Source of the DNA: a virus
Taxonomy: Duplodnaviria > Caudoviricetes
Strand: one strand, 5' to 3'
DNA length: 64,000 nucleotides
Virus record (IMG/VR): IMGVR_UViG_3300037067_012889
Location: 64,001 to 128,000 of that record
The notes beneath the pieces were generated by a model. That model worked only from the letters and a program-made list of their open reading frames with translations. It did no database searches and had not been told where the DNA came from. Position 1 is the first letter of the stretch. The number at the start of each line of letters is the position of its first letter. This document shows positions 3,945 through 25,147 of the stretch, in pieces. The translations under genes and the position numbers were made by a program.

Positions 3945-4103
3945 TTCGGAATCTCCTGTGTGACCTCGAACGTTTATAGCACCAGAGCAGGAGATTATTA
4001 ACCGGCTTGCGACGGCGATCAAAGCGGTTAACAATCACCGCCCATCGTGCTATAACTTGGCATGGGGAGGGAGGTCCGACCCAGAAACACAGGAGATTTC
4101 GAA

Positions 4104-5666
4104 ATGCTCAGCTTCACCGAACAGTTTCTCGCAGCTCGCAAGGTCGGCGTTCCTCTCATCGGAATCGAAAGCAGCGATCCTGGTGCGACGATGAAGACGC
4201 TGGTCAAGGACTGCTCCGAAACGCCTGTTTCTGCTGCTGTCGTTACGTGGAATTCGGCCACTGGTGTTGTTGGCAACAACGTTGCTGGTGAGAAACTGGC
4301 ATCGCGTCTGAACGAAGACCCCGACATCGCCGCTCCGATCGCTTTTCTGACCGCAATCGCCAGCGACGTCACGCCGGGATGGACCATCATCGGGATGCAA
4401 GCGGCAACCGATTGGTTCGACAACCCGGTCGTTCGTCAGGCCATCTGGAATCTCCGCGACAACTTCAAGCGTCGTGGTTGCACTCTCGTCCTGCTCTCGG
4501 ACGTCATCCAGCTACCGAACAGCCTCAAAAACGACGTCGTCATCATCGAAGAGCCGATGCCGAACGAAGAGCAGTTGGCCGGAATCGTCAAGACGCTCGA
4601 CGCACAAACGAGCCGTTGCGATTGTGGCGGCGTCAAGGGCTGCACGAAGTGCAAGGGGACTGGCATCAAGACGAAGCGGCCGTTGTGTGACGAGGACACG
4701 GTTGGCCGCGTGGTCGAAGCCGTGAAGGGCTTGCCGTACTTCGGTGCTGAACAGGTCGTGGCGATGGCACTCCGCAATCAGCCGGTCGCCGGACAGAAGC
4801 CCACGAGCTGCATCGACCTCGAACACTGCTGGAGTGCGAAGCGGAAGCAGGTCGAGCAGACGAAGGGGCTGTCGATCCATCGTGGCGGCGAGACTTTCGA
4901 TGATCTCGGTGGTCTCGACCAAATCAAGACCTACTTGAGTCGCATCATGACGGGCCGCAAGGCTCCGAAGCTCATCGTGTGGCTCGACGAAATCGAGAAG
5001 ACCGGCTTGGCAAATCGTGGCGACACGAGCGGCGTCAATCAGGACCAGGAAGGTACACTGCTTTCCTGGATGGAAGATTTCGACGTCTTCGGTGTCATGC
5101 TCCTTGGCGTTCCGGGTTGCGGCAAGTCGGCCATCTGCAAGGCGGTTGGTGCCGAATACGATCGCGTCGTCATCCGAATCGATCTCGGTGCGATGCAAGG
5201 CTCGCTGGTCGGCCAAAGCCAGACCAACATCCGAGCAGCCTTGAAGGTGGTGCAGGCCATCGGTGGTACCGACACGCTGTGGCTGGCGACGAGCAACAGC
5301 ATCAGCGGCTTGTCCTCTGCGATGAAGTCCCGATTCACCGACACCTTCTTTTTCGACCTGCCGCCGAAGGAAGAGCGTCTGCCGATTTGGAAGGTGTGGC
5401 TCGACAAGAACGGCCTCTCGGACAAGCCTTTCACGAACGACGAAGGCTGGGTCGCCCGCAACATCAAGAAGTGCTGCGACAAGGCGTTCCGAATGGGCAT
5501 CTCCATCGCGGAAGCCGCCACATACATCACCCCTGTTGGCCTGACCGACCGCGAGGACATCAAGAATCTGCGGTCCTGCGCCGACAACCGGTACCTCTCG
5601 GCCTCTCATGCTGGCGTCTACAAGGTGCCGAAGACCGTCGAGCCGGAACGGGCTTTGAGCCTCTGA
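4104..5666 (+). CDS. Ycf46-like AAA+ ATPase with permuted core (Walker B before Walker A) and Cys-rich insertion
   Basis: DLGGLDQIK, LIVWLDEIEK, GVPGCGKS, LVGQSQ, ATSN, SRF..FFFDLP motifs; degenerate N-terminal AAA-like domain. Confidence 0.85.
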   Translation: MLSFTEQFLAARKVGVPLIGIESSDPGATMKTLVKDCSETPVSAAVVTWNSATGVVGNNVAGEKLASRLNEDPDIAAPIAFLTAIASDVTPGWTIIGMQAATDWFDNPVVRQAIWNLRDNFKRRGCTLVLLSDVIQLPNSLKNDVVIIEEPMPNEEQLAGIVKTLDAQTSRCDCGGVKGCTKCKGTGIKTKRPLCDEDTVGRVVEAVKGLPYFGAEQVVAMALRNQPVAGQKPTSCIDLEHCWSAKRKQVEQTKGLSIHRGGETFDDLGGLDQIKTYLSRIMTGRKAPKLIVWLDEIEKTGLANRGDTSGVNQDQEGTLLSWMEDFDVFGVMLLGVPGCGKSAICKAVGAEYDRVVIRIDLGAMQGSLVGQSQTNIRAALKVVQAIGGTDTLWLATSNSISGLSSAMKSRFTDTFFFDLPPKEERLPIWKVWLDKNGLSDKPFTNDEGWVARNIKKCCDKAFRMGISIAEAATYITPVGLTDREDIKNLRSCADNRYLSASHAGVYKVPKTVEPERALSL

Positions 5667-5679
5667 TACGTCCTGTGTC

Positions 5680-5730
5680 ACAACTCGATCGGATGTGGCT
5701 CGTAGTCGCTCCGATCGGGTTGTTTTCTTT
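5680..5730 (+). terminator. intrinsic terminator after the ATPase gene
   Basis: ACAACTCGATCGGA / TCCGATCGGGTTGT stem plus TTTCTTT. Confidence 0.7.
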
Positions 5731-5925
5731 GAGGTAATAGATGAAAACCCGCGAATTGGTGAAACTGTTAATTGGTGCGCTATTAATAACTGGTGTGTGT
5801 TGGCTTGTGCATCTGGTCGAGTGGTGTTGTCAGCCATAGTCGAGATGGCAAACAGGCGGTTAATAATTACCCCTCATCGTGCTATAACTAGTTACCGGAA
5901 AACAACATCTAACAGGAGATAGACG

Positions 5926-6882
5926 ATGACCGAGATCGAAAAAGCCCAATCAGAAGACGCTCAAGCCGCAAACGTGCTCGATTTGACAACCTGCTTGCTG
6001 CTCCGATTCCACAAAACCGGCCTCATTCGGAAGGGCAACATCACCAAAATCCAAACGATTGCCAACAAGAAACGTCTTGGACTCAACAAGAAGATTCTGA
6101 CCAGCGGGAATTACGACAGCATGATGCTCATCGCCCGCGACATTCGCCGCTACGCCGTGAAGCGTCAGGTCCCAGGGTCGCCGTTCTCGGAAGGAACTCA
6201 CCTGATCCCATTGCCACTCGTCGACGACCTGAACGACAAGATCACGAATGCTGAGAACGCGTACAACACGTGGGCCGACATGTTCGTCGACGAATACGCC
6301 AACCTGGTCGAGGAAGCGAAAGAGGAATTGCAAGATCAGTTCGATCCCAACAACTACTTCGACGTGAGCACCGATTCAGGTCGCAACGCACTGCGTGCCA
6401 AGTTCTGGGTAGAGCGGCGATGGTTCGACTGGTCGCCGTCCAGCGACAAGAAGGTGTCGAGTGTGGTTGCCTCACAGGAAAGGCGTCGTCAAGCAACCGA
6501 AATCCAGGATATGGCACTGCAGGTCAAAGCAGCGTTGCGGATGGGCTTGAAGAAACTCATCGACCATCTGGTCGAGCGTCTGACGCCTACCCCTGGTGGC
6601 GCTCGCAAGATGTTCGCTCCGACGACGATCACGAAAATCGCTGATTTCTTGGAGTTGTTCTCTGCCCGCAATGTCTGCGGTGACAAGGAATTGGCACTGC
6701 TCGCCGATCAAGCACGTGAGGTGCTCGACGGTCAAACTGCAGAATCTATCAGAGGCGACGAAGAAGTACAATCGGTCGTCGCCGGACATATGTCAACGAT
6801 CAAGGAAGGGTTGGACAAACTGCTGCAAGACATGCCAGAACGTGTCATCAACCTGGACGATGATGAGGATGATGATGAATAA
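5926..6882 (+). CDS. DUF3150-like alpha-helical protein
   Basis: PF..GTHLIP..LV..L...F..EY..L..A..EL..QFDP..Y pattern; adjacent to AAA ATPase. Confidence 0.55.
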   Translation: MTEIEKAQSEDAQAANVLDLTTCLLLRFHKTGLIRKGNITKIQTIANKKRLGLNKKILTSGNYDSMMLIARDIRRYAVKRQVPGSPFSEGTHLIPLPLVDDLNDKITNAENAYNTWADMFVDEYANLVEEAKEELQDQFDPNNYFDVSTDSGRNALRAKFWVERRWFDWSPSSDKKVSSVVASQERRRQATEIQDMALQVKAALRMGLKKLIDHLVERLTPTPGGARKMFAPTTITKIADFLELFSARNVCGDKELALLADQAREVLDGQTAESIRGDEEVQSVVAGHMSTIKEGLDKLLQDMPERVINLDDDEDDDE

Positions 6883-7210
6883 GCTCGTCAAATTACTACT
6901 ACAGGTCCTAGTGTGGCCTGTAGTAGTAATTTTTCGATGGTTCGATGGTGATCGATTATCATCACTTCAAGCATGGTCTGATGAAGTCTTAAAGGACGAC
7001 CAAGACCTCGACAATGAGGGATTTCTAAAGAAGGTCCAAGAAGATAATCTCACCAAAACACTATTCCCTACCGAATTTGCTAAGAAGGTAGCAGAGATTT
7101 ACGGTGCAACGGGGTGTGTTAGCACTGCTGCTCCTCTCGACATCCAAAATAAGGACTCTGACAAGCCAGAAATAGATACAGGCGACGAAAGAGTTATCTG
7201 TCTCGATTAA
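6875..7210 (+). CDS. hypothetical protein with N-terminal hydrophobic helix
   Basis: 3' part of ORF 6596..7210; GAGG RBS; overlaps upstream stop. Confidence 0.55.
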   Translation: MNKLVKLLLQVLVWPVVVIFRWFDGDRLSSLQAWSDEVLKDDQDLDNEGFLKKVQEDNLTKTLFPTEFAKKVAEIYGATGCVSTAAPLDIQNKDSDKPEIDTGDERVICLD

Positions 7211-7267
7211 TAATTACCCGGATTCGTGCTATAACTGGGTAGCGGGAAAGCAAATACAGGAGCAATC

Positions 7268-7714
7268 ATGTCACACGTCGTCGCGATCAAGCTCGAAATC
7301 AAAGACCTGAAAGCATTGGCCGAAGCAGCGAAAGCTCTCGGAGCCGAATTCGTCGAAGGTAAAAAGACCTTCCGATGGTACGGCAGATGGGTGAACGACT
7401 ACAGCGAAGAGAATGCCGCGTACAAGAACGGCATCGACCCGAAGGACTACGGGAAGTGCGATCACATCATCAGTCATCCCGACTGCTGCTACGACATTGG
7501 ACTCGTCAAGCAGTCGAATGGCACGTTCCTTGTCGTAGCCGACGAGTGGCATGCTGGTGGATTGGCACAGGTGTTCGGAAGTGGAATGTCGAAGCTCAAA
7601 CAGCGGTACGCGGTTTCCGTCGCCGCTCGAACCATGCGAGCCAAGGGATGGCGTGTCTCCGAGCGACCCGGCCAAAAGGCCGACAGCGTTCGTCTTGTCT
7701 GCACCAAAATGTGA
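7268..7714 (+). CDS. DUF1257 (Ycf35-like) protein
   Basis: MSHVVAIKLEIKDL.AL..A...LG, YDIGL....GTF..VAD.W, KLKQRYA..VA......G..V pattern. Confidence 0.75.
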   Translation: MSHVVAIKLEIKDLKALAEAAKALGAEFVEGKKTFRWYGRWVNDYSEENAAYKNGIDPKDYGKCDHIISHPDCCYDIGLVKQSNGTFLVVADEWHAGGLAQVFGSGMSKLKQRYAVSVAARTMRAKGWRVSERPGQKADSVRLVCTKM

Positions 7715-7724
7715 AAGGGAGAAA

Positions 7725-7910
7725 ATGCAAACGATCACGATCGATATCGATACCGATGGGTCACCAACGATCAAAGTCAACGGTGTCCCCGGCAAGTCGT
7801 GCAAGGACGTCACAAAAACCGTTGAACGTGCTCTCGGGACAGTCACCTCGGATAAATCGACGCCTGAAATGTACCAACCGGAGAAGGCCCAACGACATGT
7901 CAGCCAATGA
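7725..7910 (+). CDS. DUF2997-like protein
   Basis: ITIDI..DG...IKVNG..GKSC..VT..VERALG....D..TPE.Y pattern; follows DUF1257. Confidence 0.75.
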   Translation: MQTITIDIDTDGSPTIKVNGVPGKSCKDVTKTVERALGTVTSDKSTPEMYQPEKAQRHVSQ

Positions 7911-8157
7911 ACTCTTAATCGACGTGCTCGATGACGGCAGCTTGGCCGCGATCCACAACGATGCGTTGGTGGATTTGTATAGCGAAGGCCAGACGACCAT
8001 ACGGCGTGCAAGCAACGTTGAGCCGGTCGTAGTAGATGGCAAGGTGGCATGGGTTGCAGACCTCTCGCCTGTTGGTGGTCCGAAGCTCGAACCATGCGAC
8101 CTACGGGCCGACGCACTCGCGGCCGAGGTTGTTTGGTTGCAAGAGAACGGATTCTAA
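7897..8157 (+). CDS. conserved hypothetical protein accompanying DUF1257/DUF2997 clusters
   Basis: IRRASNVEP...WVADLSPVGGP.L.P...R.DALAAEV.WL, recalled from planctomycete clusters. Confidence 0.6.
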   Translation: MSANELLIDVLDDGSLAAIHNDALVDLYSEGQTTIRRASNVEPVVVDGKVAWVADLSPVGGPKLEPCDLRADALAAEVVWLQENGF

Positions 8158-8338
8158 TCTTTCCAGAATGGAAATCAAGTGCAAGTAGGTCATCACATCC
8201 TGGAAGCATTGCGGTACGCAGCGAAACAACCGTGCCATCGATCTAACTGCGGCACAGTATGTAAGTGTGGTCCATGTCACGCACGAGCAGCACTCCAAGT
8301 TGTTGAAGAACGAGAACACAAACGCCTAAAGGCAAAAT

Positions 8339-8998
8339 ATGAGCAGCGAAACACATGAAAGCTATGGCATGGTAGGGTTCTCGCGGACGAGTTGCCGCCC
8401 TGGTGTCAACCTCTTCGGATCGGCTATCAAACACGCCAACATTATAACACTACGTATCAAGCAGGCCAAAAAAGAACGCAGCTTGAACGAAGATCGGTAT
8501 TATGGTGGCGAATCGCTCATCGAGGTCGCCATGAGCCAAAACCAGTTTGCCGAAGCTATTACAGCGATGAATGTCGGCGACGGCGTTCCGTGCACTATCC
8601 GGCGAATTGGGAAGACCGGCGTGGCTGATTGCCCAGAAGAAACTGTGCGGCAAGTGTTCGAACAGGAATTCAAGCAGCATTGTGCTGAAATCGTAGAAGC
8701 TGCTGCTGGTCTGGTATCGAAGGCAGGGAAGATGCTGGAACAGAAGACGGTCAAAAAATCGGAATTGAAGGAACTTATCTCCGTTCTCAGGAAGCTTTCG
8801 ATTGAGCTTAATTGCAATCTACCATTCGTCGGCAGCCAGTTCAACGACGCGATGGATAAGATTGTCACTGACGGCAAGAATACCGTCGAAGCCTACATCT
8901 TACACCGGCTTACCGAGCTTGGTACCAAGGCACTCAGCAAAGAGATTGACGATTCGAACGAGCTTCCGGCAATCACTTTCCAGGGTACATTGGGTTAA
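8339..8998 (+). CDS. conserved phage hypothetical protein
   Basis: HESYGM..FSR, LFGS.I.H, MS..QFAEAIT.MN.G.GVPCTI motifs. Confidence 0.7.
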   Translation: MSSETHESYGMVGFSRTSCRPGVNLFGSAIKHANIITLRIKQAKKERSLNEDRYYGGESLIEVAMSQNQFAEAITAMNVGDGVPCTIRRIGKTGVADCPEETVRQVFEQEFKQHCAEIVEAAAGLVSKAGKMLEQKTVKKSELKELISVLRKLSIELNCNLPFVGSQFNDAMDKIVTDGKNTVEAYILHRLTELGTKALSKEIDDSNELPAITFQGTLG

Positions 8999-9065
8999 AT
9001 CCGTTACTATTTCGTGCTATAACTGGGTAGCGGGGAGGGAGGTCCGACCGCATAGGAGGCATGAA

Positions 9066-9275
9066 ATGGCTAGCTCGAAAATCGTCAGAATTCCGGTGGA
9101 TCGTCTCGACTTCATTGTCAATGTTCTGACCTCAATCAACGACGCATCAGAAGAATGGGTCTTGTCATTTTCTGGCAAGACAAAGCATGAAGCCATCAAG
9201 AACGTTGTTGAGGGACTCAGGCTCATCGCACATCCGGTCGAAGCGATCGCACCAAACACAGGAGATTCAAAGTGA
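9066..9275 (+). CDS. hypothetical protein
   Basis: promoter 8995-9023, leader hairpin, AGGAGG RBS. Confidence 0.6.
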   Translation: MASSKIVRIPVDRLDFIVNVLTSINDASEEWVLSFSGKTKHEAIKNVVEGLRLIAHPVEAIAPNTGDSK

Positions 9276-9673
9276 TTACGACAACGATCGATGTTAAGCT
9301 CCACGATGTCGTCAAGATGCCCGATGGTTCCCAATTCATCATTGTCGACATCAAGCCGAATCGGCCATCCAACCAATTTGTCGGCATCTTGGTCAACGGC
9401 AAAGGTGCCCCGTACAAATTCGGCTTTCGGCATCGTCCGGCAGTGGTAGGACATGCCGAAGACAACCACCCTGCACTCGTGGCATATCTGCAACGCACAC
9501 AACGTGTCTTTACCGGATTCTGCAACAATTCGAATCCAGCTATGGCATCGACGACTGCGGTGTTCTTTCACCTTCTCGAAGCCGTCGAAGCCGACGACAT
9601 GCCGAAGGCAAAGATTCTTGCCGCCGCCATCAGAACGATGCCGGGATACGCCATTGCAAACCTAATTAAGTGA
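9272..9673 (+). CDS. hypothetical protein
   Basis: AGGAG RBS; GTGA overlap. Confidence 0.65.
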   Translation: MITTTIDVKLHDVVKMPDGSQFIIVDIKPNRPSNQFVGILVNGKGAPYKFGFRHRPAVVGHAEDNHPALVAYLQRTQRVFTGFCNNSNPAMASTTAVFFHLLEAVEADDMPKAKILAAAIRTMPGYAIANLIK

Positions 9674-9695
9674 ACGATGTATCCAGTTTTCCAAG

Positions 9696-10046
9696 ATGGA
9701 AAGGAAGTGCATCATACCCTGCTACACCGTGCAAACAATGTCGGTAGCTTTCAAGGCCGAGAATAAGGATCTCCTGGTCGAAGCTTTGAAAGCCATCGAC
9801 TATCCATTCCGTTATATCGGAAACAAAATCGAGGTCCGGACTCCCGGTGGAATGATAACTTTAGACCTCGCTGCCGAGACGGCCTCCCTCTCCGGCCAGG
9901 ATACCAAATTCCTCCAAGAAACGTTGAACAAACTGAAACGGTCTTACAGCATGGAAGCCATCAAGGTAATTGCTAAGAAGCAGCACTGGACGCTCAAGAC
10001 CAAAGCTTCCAATAAAATGGCGGGTGTCCTTCAACGCCGGAATTAG
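9696..10046 (+). CDS. second, divergent DUF1257-like protein
   Basis: DLLVEALKAI.Y...LNKLKRSYS.EAIK..AKKQ.W pattern; followed by DUF2997-like gene. Confidence 0.5.
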   Translation: MERKCIIPCYTVQTMSVAFKAENKDLLVEALKAIDYPFRYIGNKIEVRTPGGMITLDLAAETASLSGQDTKFLQETLNKLKRSYSMEAIKVIAKKQHWTLKTKASNKMAGVLQRRN

Positions 10047-10051
10047 GAGAA

Positions 10052-10309
10052 ATGGTGGCCACATTATCTGAAATGAATGGCGGTTTTGACTCGATCCCAT
10101 TTGAAATTCTTGAGGATGGCACGATTAGCATCAAAACCGATCGCATCAGCGGGACAAATCACATGTCAGCCGACGACCTACTGGCCGACTTAGCTAAGGT
10201 CATGGGTGGCGAACACACATCAAAACAGCGGGAAGACGTCAAGGTCCCACTTCGTCATCACCATCACGGCCACGAGCACGGACACGAGCACGGCCATCTA
10301 CATCAATGA
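10052..10309 (+). CDS. second, divergent DUF2997-like protein with His-rich tail
   Basis: I.FEILEDGTISIKTD.ISG.NH..A..L...LA..MGG; ends HHHHGHEHGHEHGHLHQ. Confidence 0.5.
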   Translation: MVATLSEMNGGFDSIPFEILEDGTISIKTDRISGTNHMSADDLLADLAKVMGGEHTSKQREDVKVPLRHHHHGHEHGHEHGHLHQ

Positions 10310-10947
10310 AACTATCTGAATTGCAAAACGGCTGGGAACTAATCGAATCCATGAATAATGAGATTCGATTAGCCGATGGCATCGTTGGCGAGATTCAAGA
10401 CCACAATCGCCGACGAGCTGCCATGCAGTTTATGCAGCATAAACTGTTGAAGGAAGACGAGACCACAGATCCGCAAACGGGGATCTTCTTCTGGGTTCCG
10501 ATCATCGGATCCAAAATCACTTGGCGTCTCGAAACGTTTTTCGATTCACAATTCCCAGTCAACTCAGAACATAGCCAAGGTTTGGATCATCAAGGCATTT
10601 GGCTCCGATGGGCAAATACCATTCTTGGAAAAGATGATTCCGACGCACCAAGAGAAATAAGGCATCATTATAGTGGTTTGCCGCGTGGCAGGGTGACAGT
10701 TACGAAAGAACGAAAATATATCGGGGCACCAGCAACCAAGGTCTGGCTGATTCTCAACGGTGGCGATGCACCAATGCCGGAAGCAAAAGCAGGCAAGCTA
10801 CTCGCCTCACGATTCTGTCTTCCGGACGGCCAATGGAAGTACGTATTTGACGATCATGAACGCATGCTAGCCGATGACGTCAAGGCCATTCAACGCTATC
10901 TTGGCCGCGATTTAGGGTTACTCAAAAAAGTGGCCAAATTCGACTAA
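10306..10947 (+). CDS. hypothetical protein
   Basis: 213-aa ORF; ATGA overlap. Confidence 0.7.
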   Translation: MKLSELQNGWELIESMNNEIRLADGIVGEIQDHNRRRAAMQFMQHKLLKEDETTDPQTGIFFWVPIIGSKITWRLETFFDSQFPVNSEHSQGLDHQGIWLRWANTILGKDDSDAPREIRHHYSGLPRGRVTVTKERKYIGAPATKVWLILNGGDAPMPEAKAGKLLASRFCLPDGQWKYVFDDHERMLADDVKAIQRYLGRDLGLLKKVAKFD

Positions 10948-11031
10948 TTGCTAGTTTTAGTTAACGAGGAATATGTCTGGTGCTATAACTAGACAGAGGG
11001 GACACAGCACACAGCAAATAGGAGATTTATC

Positions 11032-11460
11032 TTGGCGAAAATGACCGAAAACGACAAAATTGCGAAGTATGGTGTGGTTGTGCAACTCGTCATGAGCCAC
11101 TCGAAACCCGACGAGGGAGCACATGCTATCCGGATGAAGGACGGTGTTTACGCTTGCGATTGCAAGGGGTGGGTCTTCTCGAAGTCCGTCCCAAAAACGT
11201 GCAAGCACATTGACTTTTACCTGAAACAGGCAAAGGTCAGCCAGAAAGTCGTCGAGCTGACTGAGATCCAGATCACCGAGAAGTGCCTGAAAACTGCTGG
11301 TTGCTACGACGCCGTCAAGAACGACTGTCCGACGCTTGAAGCTTTTCAGCACAAGCTGGCCCGTCTCGCACAGGCTCTCCTTCCGTATTTCGGAGGGAAC
11401 GGTCCTGCCCTCGCCATGGACACGACCAACGACATCCGTACCATTTGGCTCGACGATTAA
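11032..11460 (+). CDS. SWIM-type zinc-finger protein
   Basis: Y.CDCKGW...CKHI motif; own promoter. Confidence 0.7.
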   Translation: MAKMTENDKIAKYGVVVQLVMSHSKPDEGAHAIRMKDGVYACDCKGWVFSKSVPKTCKHIDFYLKQAKVSQKVVELTEIQITEKCLKTAGCYDAVKNDCPTLEAFQHKLARLAQALLPYFGGNGPALAMDTTNDIRTIWLDD

Positions 11461-11493: not shown

Positions 11494-11724
11494 ATGAACG
11501 TCGACGAAATTATCAAATCCGCCAAGGGTCCAAAAGAGAAGATGGCGGAACAGGTCGATCTTGAGGCCCATATTCAGATGTGGGTCCCCGAAGCCGAGCG
11601 AGAAATATGTCTCTCGAATCTTTGCTTTTTGCTACAGATGGAGTATCTACGCGGCCAGCGTGATGCTCTCATTGAAAACATCGAGAGGCAGAAGACTAAG
11701 GCTGACCAGGAACGATCAGCTTAG
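11494..11724 (+). CDS. hypothetical protein
   Basis: AGGAG RBS. Confidence 0.6.
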   Translation: MNVDEIIKSAKGPKEKMAEQVDLEAHIQMWVPEAEREICLSNLCFLLQMEYLRGQRDALIENIERQKTKADQERSA

Positions 11725-12849: not shown

Positions 12850-13155
12850 TTAATGAGGGGACAGAGCATCAAGCTCGTCCAACTCTGCTTCGGTGAGATC
12901 CCAGACGTCGATTTCTTCTCTGGCGATTTTGTAATCGCCAAATTCACCATCGTTGAGCGCTTCTACCATCATATCAACGGTGACACCGAACCAAAAAGCA
13001 GCGCTCTTAACCAAATCGCTCAAATTCGTTGCCGTGATCGGCAACATCGGAGGCTTACGGCCCATTTCGGTCGGATTCGGTCCACTTTCCATCACTACCG
13101 GACACAATGTAGTCTTGTCGACCAATGTGTATCGTACATAATGACGTAATGCCAT
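12850..13155 (-). CDS. hypothetical protein
   Basis: AAGGAG RBS; in minus-strand run. Confidence 0.65.
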   Translation of the reverse strand: MALRHYVRYTLVDKTTLCPVVMESGPNPTEMGRKPPMLPITATNLSDLVKSAAFWFGVTVDMMVEALNDGEFGDYKIAREEIDVWDLTEAELDELDALSPH

Positions 13156-13167
13156 CGCAACTCTCCT

Positions 13168-13617
13168 TTATCCTACCTCAACGCACCAATACACAAATGG
13201 ACGTTTCGAATGCAGTAGCAGCCGCAAATTCTCATCTAACGTTTCACAAGCATCACAATACTTGGAAATCGTACTGACTTGTACTGGCTTCACCCTCAGT
13301 ATCTCGTAACCATTGATATACTCGCCGACGACAGGCTTGTTGTCGCCCTTGATTGGTGTGTGTGATTTGGCGACCGGAATGTCGTCATAAAATATGGTCG
13401 CCTTAGGTTTAAGTTCATCAAGCCTGACCTCTGACTCTTCACCCAAACGTGTTCGGACATAAGCCCTCTCACTGATATCGTTGTATGAGAGGATCTTCAC
13501 GAAATCGCCACGGTGGATGAATTCTTTGTCGGCTCGAATCATCAATGTTTGAAGACTCGTGCGACAAGCATAGGTCATACCCTCTTTGACTTCGACATGT
13601 CCGGCCTTAGTGCTCAT
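13168..13617 (-). CDS. hypothetical protein
   Basis: AGGAG RBS; overlap with upstream stop. Confidence 0.65.
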   Translation of the reverse strand: MSTKAGHVEVKEGMTYACRTSLQTLMIRADKEFIHRGDFVKILSYNDISERAYVRTRLGEESEVRLDELKPKATIFYDDIPVAKSHTPIKGDNKPVVGEYINGYEILRVKPVQVSTISKYCDACETLDENLRLLLHSKRPFVYWCVEVG

Positions 13618-25024: not shown

Positions 25025-25112
25025 GGCCGTGTGGAGAAATCGGTAAACTCAACAAATTTAAAATTTGTCACCTATTCAAACGGGTTTGCGGGTTCGAATC
25101 CCGCCACGGCTA
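25025..25112 (+). tRNA. trnL: tRNA-Leu(TAA), CCA not encoded
   Basis: acceptor GGCCGTG/CACGGCT, anticodon arm ACAAA-TTTAAAA-TTTGT, long variable region, T-arm GCGGG-TTCGAAT-CCCGC, discriminator A. Confidence 0.9.
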
Positions 25113-25147
25113 CTAACCTCCATTACGTAAATAATGTGGAGGTTCGA

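Follow-up and report, generated by a model that had tools for sequence, protein, structure and literature searches.

Ycf46, Ycf35 (DUF1257) and DUF2997 are three protein families of cyanobacteria and plastids. The literature found on these families consists of plastid gene lists, a review of cyanobacterial ferredoxins (PMC4284462) and stress-regulon work on Ycf46, in which stress induction and a contact with KaiC were reported (PMC13683863). Full-text searches for DUF1257, DUF2997, DUF3150, Ycf46 and Ycf35 gave no paper describing the gene module, the shared protein tail or the rewired ATPase core presented here. We analyzed a stretch of 64,000 nt, called the window below, which represents bases 64001–128000 of a 363,885-base IMG/VR record (IMGVR_UViG_3300037067_012889) of an uncultured 364-kb phage, complete by CheckV. 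At 4104–11460 of the window lies a phage-borne module with the same three families as the Ycf proteins, to which it adds a DUF3150 protein, a short protein called p86 in the following, accessory proteins carrying a common C-terminal tail and a second DUF1257/DUF2997 pair. The interval comprises 13 open reading frames (ORFs), all on the + strand, and a DNA-level search of the INPHARED phage collection yielded nothing resembling it.

An earlier note on this DNA, made from the sequence alone, had named a link between Ycf46-like ATPases, Ycf35 and DUF2997. This link was borne out by the occurrence of the trio on a Geminocystis plasmid and on the chromosome of Cyanobacterium aponinum. DUF2997 and ycf35 are also neighboring genes in cyanobacteria (PMC4284462). 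The ATPase of the Geminocystis plasmid, which we take to be Ycf46, was matched by residues 103–507 of the window ATPase in tblastn with 22.6% identity (E 4e-18). ATPases that are only 22–23% identical still lie beside DUF1257 and DUF2997 on the Geminocystis and Paenarthrobacter plasmids and on the C. aponinum chromosome.

To delineate the module we assembled 80 IMG/VR loci and 80 bacterial loci with a relative of the ATPase, plus the Tunturiibacter phage Tunturi_3, a Lignipirellula chromosome and several metagenome contigs. The resulting 165 loci (viral set 85, bacterial set 80) comprise phage contigs, plasmids, an island resembling an integrative and conjugative element (ICE) and bacterial metagenome-assembled genomes. 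The ORFs of all loci were searched with iterated profiles seeded by the window proteins. DUF3150 was identified in 78/85 loci of the viral and 70/80 of the bacterial set, DUF1257 in 77/85 and 67/80, and DUF2997 in 74/85 and about 70/80. Less frequent were p86 (46/85 and 10/80) and a SWIM-type zinc-finger protein (17/85 and 4/80). Many of the missing members belong to loci cut by a contig end. Module members always lie on the strand of the ATPase gene, in shuffled gene order. The conserved unit is thus formed by the ATPase, DUF3150, DUF1257 and DUF2997; p86 goes with one subtype and SWIM is an occasional member. In total, 142 viral and 354 bacterial stretches were confirmed. The expectation of the earlier note that these genes co-occur in other genomes was borne out: unrelated phages, plasmids and integrated elements share them much more often than chance would allow. 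Its further proposal that the whole interval 4104–11460 is one module stood for a core of four or five genes and failed for the remainder, since the passenger genes have relatives in only 0–2 of 85 loci. The gene cluster and the domain calls of the note were confirmed as well, several of them only at the family level, through relatives, profiles or fold.

Individual loci illustrate this range. On a Ca. Manganitrophus plasmid, the NCBI annotation lists AAA, DUF1257, DUF2997 and DUF3150, and a p86-like gene comes next. The cultured phage Tunturi_3 carries the ATPase, DUF1257 and DUF2997 in a row. Nitrospira moscoviensis has two module copies, and the module is located between ribonucleotide reductase and primase genes. 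Its neighbors there include a TraG/TraD-like coupling protein, an SNF2 helicase and a DUF6094 methyltransferase, and therefore the setting appears ICE-like. Bacterial loci were found in Acidobacteriota, Planctomycetota, Nitrospirota, Armatimonadota and others, commonly with several copies per genome. In the Mycobacterium phage Dylan (L087 5059–7651), the ATPase gp95, ending in ..KVRVLDL, is encoded beside the 275-aa gp94, ending in ..YALDFEEVV, which matched the DUF3150 model by fold (E 1.4e-3); DUF1257 and DUF2997 were not detected in Dylan by the window-seeded profiles.

The ATPase gene (4104..5666, + strand) encodes a Ycf46-type classical AAA+ protein of 520 aa. It matched PF00004 with E 3.7e-14 and 53.7 bits (cut-off 21.2) and phrog_8638 with E 4e-36, and has >900 relatives. 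The Walker A lysine K341, the Walker B residues D295 and E296, the sensor-1 residue N398, the arginine R410 and the pore-loop glycine G370 are invariant in 20 aligned relatives. Because all catalytic residues are kept, the protein appears from these residues to be an active unfoldase of the classical AAA+ type. Of the ATP-driven machine that had been postulated earlier, the motor is supported by this complete set of catalytic residues, and the role of its partners is a proposal.

The core of this ATPase does not follow the canonical order of Walker A, pore loop, Walker B and sensor-1. Walker B (WLDEIEK, residues 292–299) precedes Walker A (GVPGCGKS, 335–342), an order kept in 20/20 aligned relatives. 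The alignments with Pfam and with sequences from the Protein Data Bank (PDB) run from Walker A through helix 2 and then skip straight to the sensor-1 strand. The normal order is present in Dylan gp95 and in the ATPases of Geminocystis, Paenarthrobacter and Manganitrophus. The main alignment to gp95 has a gap at gp95 residues 375–415, and residues 289–325 of the window ATPase, comprising Walker B and the next helix, align to gp95 373–411 with E 2e-7 and fill this gap. It follows that a Walker B strand-helix block of ~40 residues was, as far as alignments can tell, relocated in the lineage of the window ATPase, bacterial members included. Two further features of this family were observed. Residues ~176–198 (window 4630–4700) form a Cys-rich insert, CDCGG...CTKCKGTG, with the DnaJ-like pattern CxxCxGxG, which this phage and some relatives possess and most others lack (alignment A1). 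Several relatives (P0006, P0007, P0066, P0082, P0094) are 690–850 aa long and contain intein or homing-endonuclease domains (PF14890, PF05203, PF14528).

The second conserved member is a DUF3150-family protein of 318 aa (5926..6882, + strand), assigned by its relatives and its model. The protein itself has no Pfam match at E up to 0.1, PF11348 (DUF3150) included. This domain was matched by 18/44 of its aligned relatives (best E 4.4e-10), and NCBI names its counterpart on the Manganitrophus plasmid DUF3150. The AlphaFold2 model, with a predicted local distance difference test (pLDDT) score of 91, combines a small sheet with a long helical hairpin and a bundle of four helices, and matched a ‘DUF3150 domain-containing protein’ in BFVD with E 1e-13 and template modeling (TM) scores of 0.71–0.77. 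Against solved structures, fold searches with DUF3150 returned nothing but four-helix bundles of a generic kind (Z up to 9.3), and profile searches of PDB sequences returned nothing for DUF3150 or DUF1257. Downstream follows a gene for a small protein of 111 aa (6875..7210, + strand), membrane-anchored according to the N-terminal hydrophobic segment read from its sequence. Its start overlaps the stop of the DUF3150 gene, from which the two genes appear to be translationally coupled. No relatives of this small protein were found by phmmer, and it is lineage-specific except for its tail.

Next is an operon of three genes on the + strand. The first (7268..7714) encodes a DUF1257 (Ycf35 family) protein of 148 aa, which matched PF06868 with 33.1 bits (cut-off 22.2; E 6.8e-8). 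Its model (pLDDT 93) had no Foldseek match in the PDB below E 0.1. We rejected an adaptin-appendage or KA1-like platform for this protein, the best VIA-align Z of 5.1 lying under the tool's stated noise level. The second gene (7725..7910) starts 10 nt past the DUF1257 stop and encodes a DUF2997 protein of 61 aa (PF11211; 50.7 bits, cut-off 24.1, E 1.7e-13). The third (7897..8157) overlaps the DUF2997 stop by 14 nt and encodes p86, a protein of 86 aa (RRASNVEP/DLSPVGGP protein) with the family motifs R-A-S-H/N-V-E-P and W-x-A-D-L-S-P-x-G-G-P (alignment A6). The p86 family comprises 2,987 representative clusters of throughout short proteins, and no match was found in Pfam, PHROG or NCBIfam.

A divergent second pair is located further downstream on the same strand, a DUF1257 protein of 116 aa (9696..10046) and a DUF2997 protein of 85 aa (10052..10309). 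Neither has a Pfam match. Both were assigned with family profiles built from their phmmer relatives and compared by hhalign: the first family matched the family of the other window DUF1257 with a probability of 95.9% (E 5e-9), and its iterated profile merges with DUF1257; the second matched the DUF2997 profile with a probability of 94.9% (E 4e-8). The last member is the SWIM-type zinc-finger protein of 142 aa (11032..11460, + strand), an occasional accessory of the module. In 17 relatives, four of which matched PF04434 (SWIM; best E 4e-4), C42, C44, C57 and H59 (CxC...CxH) are conserved without exception, and so is R136 in the tail; the window protein has no Pfam match.

The two pairs represent two subtypes. 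In subtype A, to which the pair at 7268–7910 belongs, a long DUF1257 goes together with p86 and with a DUF2997 that has a conserved G-x2-G-x2-C followed by a PE[Y/M]Y motif (alignment A4). In subtype B, represented by the pair at 9696–10309, DUF1257 is short, p86 is absent, and DUF2997 has Asn-His in place of the Cys motif and a His-rich C-terminus. Such His-rich DUF2997 ends occur in 24 subtype-B loci, and p86 was never found with subtype B in the viral-set loci. Other loci have one subtype, whereas this phage has both; its nearest relatives, L007 and L008, with ATPases 76% identical, have subtype A and SWIM only. DUF1257 and DUF2997 are adjacent nearly everywhere. Natural fusions were found once each for DUF1257 with DUF2997 (L043) and for the ATPase with DUF1257 (L144).

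The ATPase, the DUF3150 protein, the membrane-anchored protein and the SWIM protein end in a shared tail, R-x-[I/F/V]-x-[L/F] followed by acidic residues. In the window, these ends read ..PERALSL, ..PERVINLDDDEDDDE, ..GDERVICLD and ..NDIRTIWLDD, respectively, whereas the subtype-A DUF1257 and DUF2997 have no tail. The codons differ among the four, so the likeness lies at the protein level; for the same reason we rejected an origin of these tails from DNA-level overlap with the promoter-like boxes described below. Across loci, the DUF3150 tail reads P-x-R-[K/A]-[I/F]-x-[F/L]-[D/E]-[D/E] and the SWIM tail R-x-[I/F]-x-[L/F]-[D/E], and that of the ATPase follows G-R-x-[I/V/L/F/M]-x-[V/L/A]. The strict pattern was present in 57% of DUF3150, 62% of SWIM and 18% of ATPase members and in 0% of DUF1257, DUF2997 and p86; other ORFs in the same loci reached 1.0–1.4%, equal to shuffled tails. 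An anchored R-x-hydrophobic was present in 79–90% of the unique tails of the three tailed families. All aligned DUF3150 and SWIM proteins have the arginine, as do nearly all aligned ATPases, and the acidic run after the motif spans 0–10 residues. The tail was not enriched in the other ORFs of the 165 loci (44 vs 37 expected) and is therefore confined to few families. Nor was a loose tail pattern enriched among all ORFs of the phage genome (14 vs 9 expected). Within loci, the ATPase and DUF3150 tails may co-vary (odds ratio 9, with p 0.008 before any correction for relatedness).

Between related phages, the gene after DUF3150 keeps only its tail. At the position of 6875–7210, L007 has an ORF (13021–13389) of unrelated sequence that ends in ..APRVINLD. 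On the Paenarthrobacter plasmid, the ATPase ends in ..RQIDF, and a helix-hairpin-helix protein ending in ..RKLDI takes the DUF3150 position. Interpretations of the tail as beta-clamp-binding, PDZ-ligand or RVxF-like were dropped, the hydrophobic spacing or the requirement for a free end being a misfit. Similar ends were also seen elsewhere in the phage genome, outside the window. A protein of 266 aa that belongs to no known family (G000:C1:214229–215029, − strand; L174 2230–3030) ends in ..EELRVINLD and is encoded directly after a TROVE+VWA (Ro60-like) gene (L174 3145–4536). At G000:C1:24301–24781 (L175 1802–2282), two convergent ORFs of 76 and 87 aa, the latter with CxxC...CxxCGGDG, overlap by 14 nt and both end in INLD because the overlap is the perfect palindrome TTAATCTAGATTAA. 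The INLD ending of this pair may come from a DNA signal and not from a protein motif.

We compared the module to known ATP-driven systems. The best solved-structure matches of the ATPase are NVL, Vps4, p97 and spastin, over the stretch from Walker A to the pore loop. With the Cdc48/p97/VAT and Vps4/CdvC types it shares the pore-loop glycine, the sensor-1 Asn and the Arg finger, but these matches cover only ~55 residues (E 1e-5 to 1e-7), and the order of the core is rewired. Cofactors of the Cdc48/p97 type bind their motor through short motifs. The 240 N-terminal residues of the window ATPase are not a known cofactor-binding domain, and they resemble a degenerate AAA tier only weakly (residues 1–238 vs 255–520 by hhalign, probability 8.7% over 55 columns). 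The partner families of the module have no relatives among known Cdc48/Vps4-type cofactors. Regarding cyanobacteria, the relatives of the Ycf46 type that we checked have the normal Walker order, unlike the window ATPase.

The HbYX/GQYL tails of PAN, Rpt, Mpa, Bpa and Cpa likewise place one short C-terminal peptide on unrelated proteins, an AAA+ motor included, and in proteasome activators this peptide plugs into a common partner ring. The tail of the module differs in having no penultimate Tyr and its free carboxylate at no fixed distance, so that it does not qualify as HbYX, and the module contains no proteasome-like or protease gene. A third comparison is provided by MoxR-VWA plasmid pairs. 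On the Cupriavidus plasmid NZ_CP017753.1 (L169 5832–9057), the gene of a DUF3150 relative is flanked by those of a MoxR-like ATPase and a VWA protein, and a ThiF gene of a PRTRC system is close by. This ATPase belongs to a different AAA+ clade, DUF1257 and DUF2997 are absent, and the DUF3150 protein is tail-less. This position suggests that DUF3150 might partner AAA+ motors of plasmids more generally.

The genes of the interval are accompanied by a recurrent promoter-like box. Its sequence GTGCTATAAC occurs in five exact copies on the + strand, the number seen in the earlier note, at 4047, 5879, 7226, 9014 and 10980, all of them intergenic. Allowing ≤1 mismatch, we counted 34 copies on both strands of the window vs 3 expected, and no shuffle reached this number. 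The box is usually located ~12 nt downstream of a TTAAyAAT-like box (repeat families D4/D5). Its TG-n-TATAA form is consistent with an extended −10 promoter of the host polymerase, and judging from this motif the module may be expressed early. The promoter-like units at 4025..4070 (with GTGCTATAAC at 4047–4056), 5857..5902 and 7204..7249 lie upstream of the ATPase gene, the DUF3150 gene and the DUF1257-DUF2997-p86 operon, respectively. The fourth (9011–9034) is situated among the passenger genes at 8339..9673 and the fifth (10977..11000) upstream of the SWIM gene; all five are on the + strand. The boxes split the interval into five units: the ATPase gene by itself; DUF3150 with the coupled small gene; DUF1257-DUF2997-p86 followed by the gene for a 219-aa protein; five genes with the second DUF1257/DUF2997 pair among them; and the SWIM gene. 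The same box was found on the − strand at 2038, 2485, 3629, 3973, 12816, 14132 and 16454, that is, on both flanks, and therefore the module sits between divergently transcribed blocks of small genes.

From these observations we propose a machine, for which we see an even chance: a hexameric unfoldase whose partners dock by their tails on a DUF1257-DUF2997 hub and which acts during the establishment of mobile DNA. The ATPase would assemble as a hexamer, and DUF1257 and DUF2997 would form an obligate pair serving as hub or adaptor. As these two are the only universal parts without a tail, are adjacent almost everywhere and were fused once, they were taken as the candidate hub and the tails as putative docking peptides. 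Each tail would add a strand to the hub, comparable to the common docking tail of proteasome activators. The variable tail-bearing proteins would steer the motor, SWIM or helix-hairpin-helix proteins to DNA and the anchored protein to the membrane. The machine would then remodel or unfold a target soon after the element enters the cell; the phage, plasmid and ICE-like settings suggest such a role in the establishment of incoming DNA. We infer that in this phage two alternative hubs could serve one motor, hub A with p86 and hub B with the His-rich end.

Several points weigh against this proposal. The receptor of the tail was picked by elimination, and this role could instead fall to the N-terminal region of the ATPase or to a protein of the host. 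In the ATPase, the tail is less strictly kept than in DUF3150. Both natural fusions are single cases from metagenome assemblies and possibly frame errors, and in a few Nitrospirales loci that have the ATPase and DUF3150, neither DUF1257 nor DUF2997 is encoded within 8 kb. Finally, DUF1257 and DUF3150 are without solved structural relatives, so the fold lends no support to the assigned role.

The same tails could be read as a recognition tag (degron). The tail-bearing proteins, the spent ATPase included, would then be substrates, DUF1257-DUF2997 their adaptor and the whole a timed, self-limiting switch. Classical AAA+ unfoldases often begin at terminal tags, such as ssrA for ClpX and Pup for Mpa, and the module tails are C-terminal, short, unstructured in the DUF3150 model (pLDDT 49–69 over the last 20 residues) and carried by a variable set of proteins. 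However, DUF3150 is near-universal and well folded, as one would hardly expect of a simple substrate, a motor with its own degron in most lineages would be costly, and the acidic run of variable length after the motif leaves the free end unfixed. We consider this reading unlikely. We are still more reluctant to see in the module a device for metal or iron-sulfur/redox maturation, an improbable yet still live alternative in which DUF1257-DUF2997 would handle metal and the motor would load or repair the cofactor of a client such as a radical-SAM/NrdG-type activase or ribonucleotide reductase. One Cys and one partly conserved His are insufficient for a cluster site; 4Fe-4S/radical-SAM or ribonucleotide reductase genes do lie near some loci, but sporadically, and no such client is encoded in the window. 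What speaks for this function is the conserved Cys of DUF2997, replaced by Asn-His in subtype B along with the His-rich ends of that subtype, the location of DUF2997 and ycf35 beside the ferredoxin gene fed7 in cyanobacteria (PMC4284462), and the joint loss of ycf34, ycf35, ycf46 and pbsA from plastids of freshwater red algae (PMC5940233).

That the machine might serve anti-defense or host takeover had been suggested earlier. The target of the motor would be a host protein that it strips or unfolds, for example, a defense protein or a nucleoid silencer on incoming DNA. Such a task would suit the residence of the module on phages, plasmids and ICE-like islands, its neighbors (primase, SNF2 helicase, methyltransferase, ParB-type), which are typical of establishment regions, the DNA-binding domains (SWIM, helix-hairpin-helix) of tail-bearing accessories and the host-type promoter-like boxes ahead of the genes. 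All of this is genomic context, and we found no tie to defense beyond the residence on mobile DNA. Known defense and counter-defense families were unmatched: in PADLOC-DB, only the P-loop of the ATPase (~50 residues) gave partial matches, to the IetA and TRIP13 models, with nine other proteins unmatched, and an NCBIfam search of the module proteins returned partial P-loop matches only. Moreover, cyanobacteria and plastids have relatives among their core genes, in a setting free of phage conflict. This function therefore appears possible but doubtful. The variable gene order and the frequent insertion of other genes between members could also mean that these are mere neighbors, independent accessory genes held by shared regulation or hitch-hiking and forming no common machine. 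Against this stand the four families found within a few kb across phyla and element types, at ATPase identities down to 22%, the tail motif shared by unrelated members and the overlapping starts and stops, which make mere neighborhood very improbable.

The remaining genes of the interval lie outside the conserved module. The genes at 8339–8998, 9066–9275, 9272–9673 and 10306–10947, as well as those at 6875–7210 and 11494–11724, have relatives in 0–2 of the 85 loci by iterated profiles and are passengers of this lineage. Those at 8339–9673 (+ strand) encode proteins of 219, 69 and 133 aa. The first matched phrog_6452 (E 8e-44), whose function is listed as unknown in PHROG, and the 133-aa protein has a relative in the related phage L007. 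The gene at 10306–10947 (+ strand) encodes a protein of 213 aa of no known family, without a match in Pfam, PHROG, PADLOC or NCBIfam and with relatives in 1/85 loci. Concerning the wider setting, a single tRNA gene was found in the window, tRNA-Leu (anticodon taa) at 25025–25113. The G+C content is ~0.50 over 1–28 kb and ~0.42 over 30–52 kb, followed by an island of 0.52–0.55 at 52–56 kb. A palindrome, TTTCC-N5-GGAAA, is repeated at 369, 1151, 1472, 8160, 9688 and 12063.

Altogether, the module is a widespread but unstudied gene set of mobile DNA. It is common, with >900 ATPase relatives and ~3,000 p86 clusters, and for three of its families no structure has been solved. What the phage analyzed here contributes is the presence of the two hub subtypes next to a single motor, the coupling of DUF3150 to a membrane protein that bears the tail, and the layout with five promoter-like units. 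Cultured carriers are available in the Tunturiibacter phage Tunturi_3, in Corndog-type mycobacteriophages (ATPase and DUF3150 only) and in Nitrospira moscoviensis. Two features offer experimental handles, the shared tail, which can be deleted or swapped for mapping the assembly, and the natural relocation of Walker B in a core that is usually held fixed. The genes ycf46 and ycf35, long orphaned in cyanobacteria and plastids, are now tied to defined partners, and therefore a result obtained with a phage or plasmid could explain both. Tentatively, DUF1257-DUF2997 might even represent a new type of hub or chamber, unrelated to any solved structure, into which a rewired AAA+ motor and interchangeable targeting proteins plug via one universal C-terminal peptide. 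If true, ycf46, ycf35 and the mobile-element module would constitute one unrecognized class of ATP-driven machines with its own docking code.

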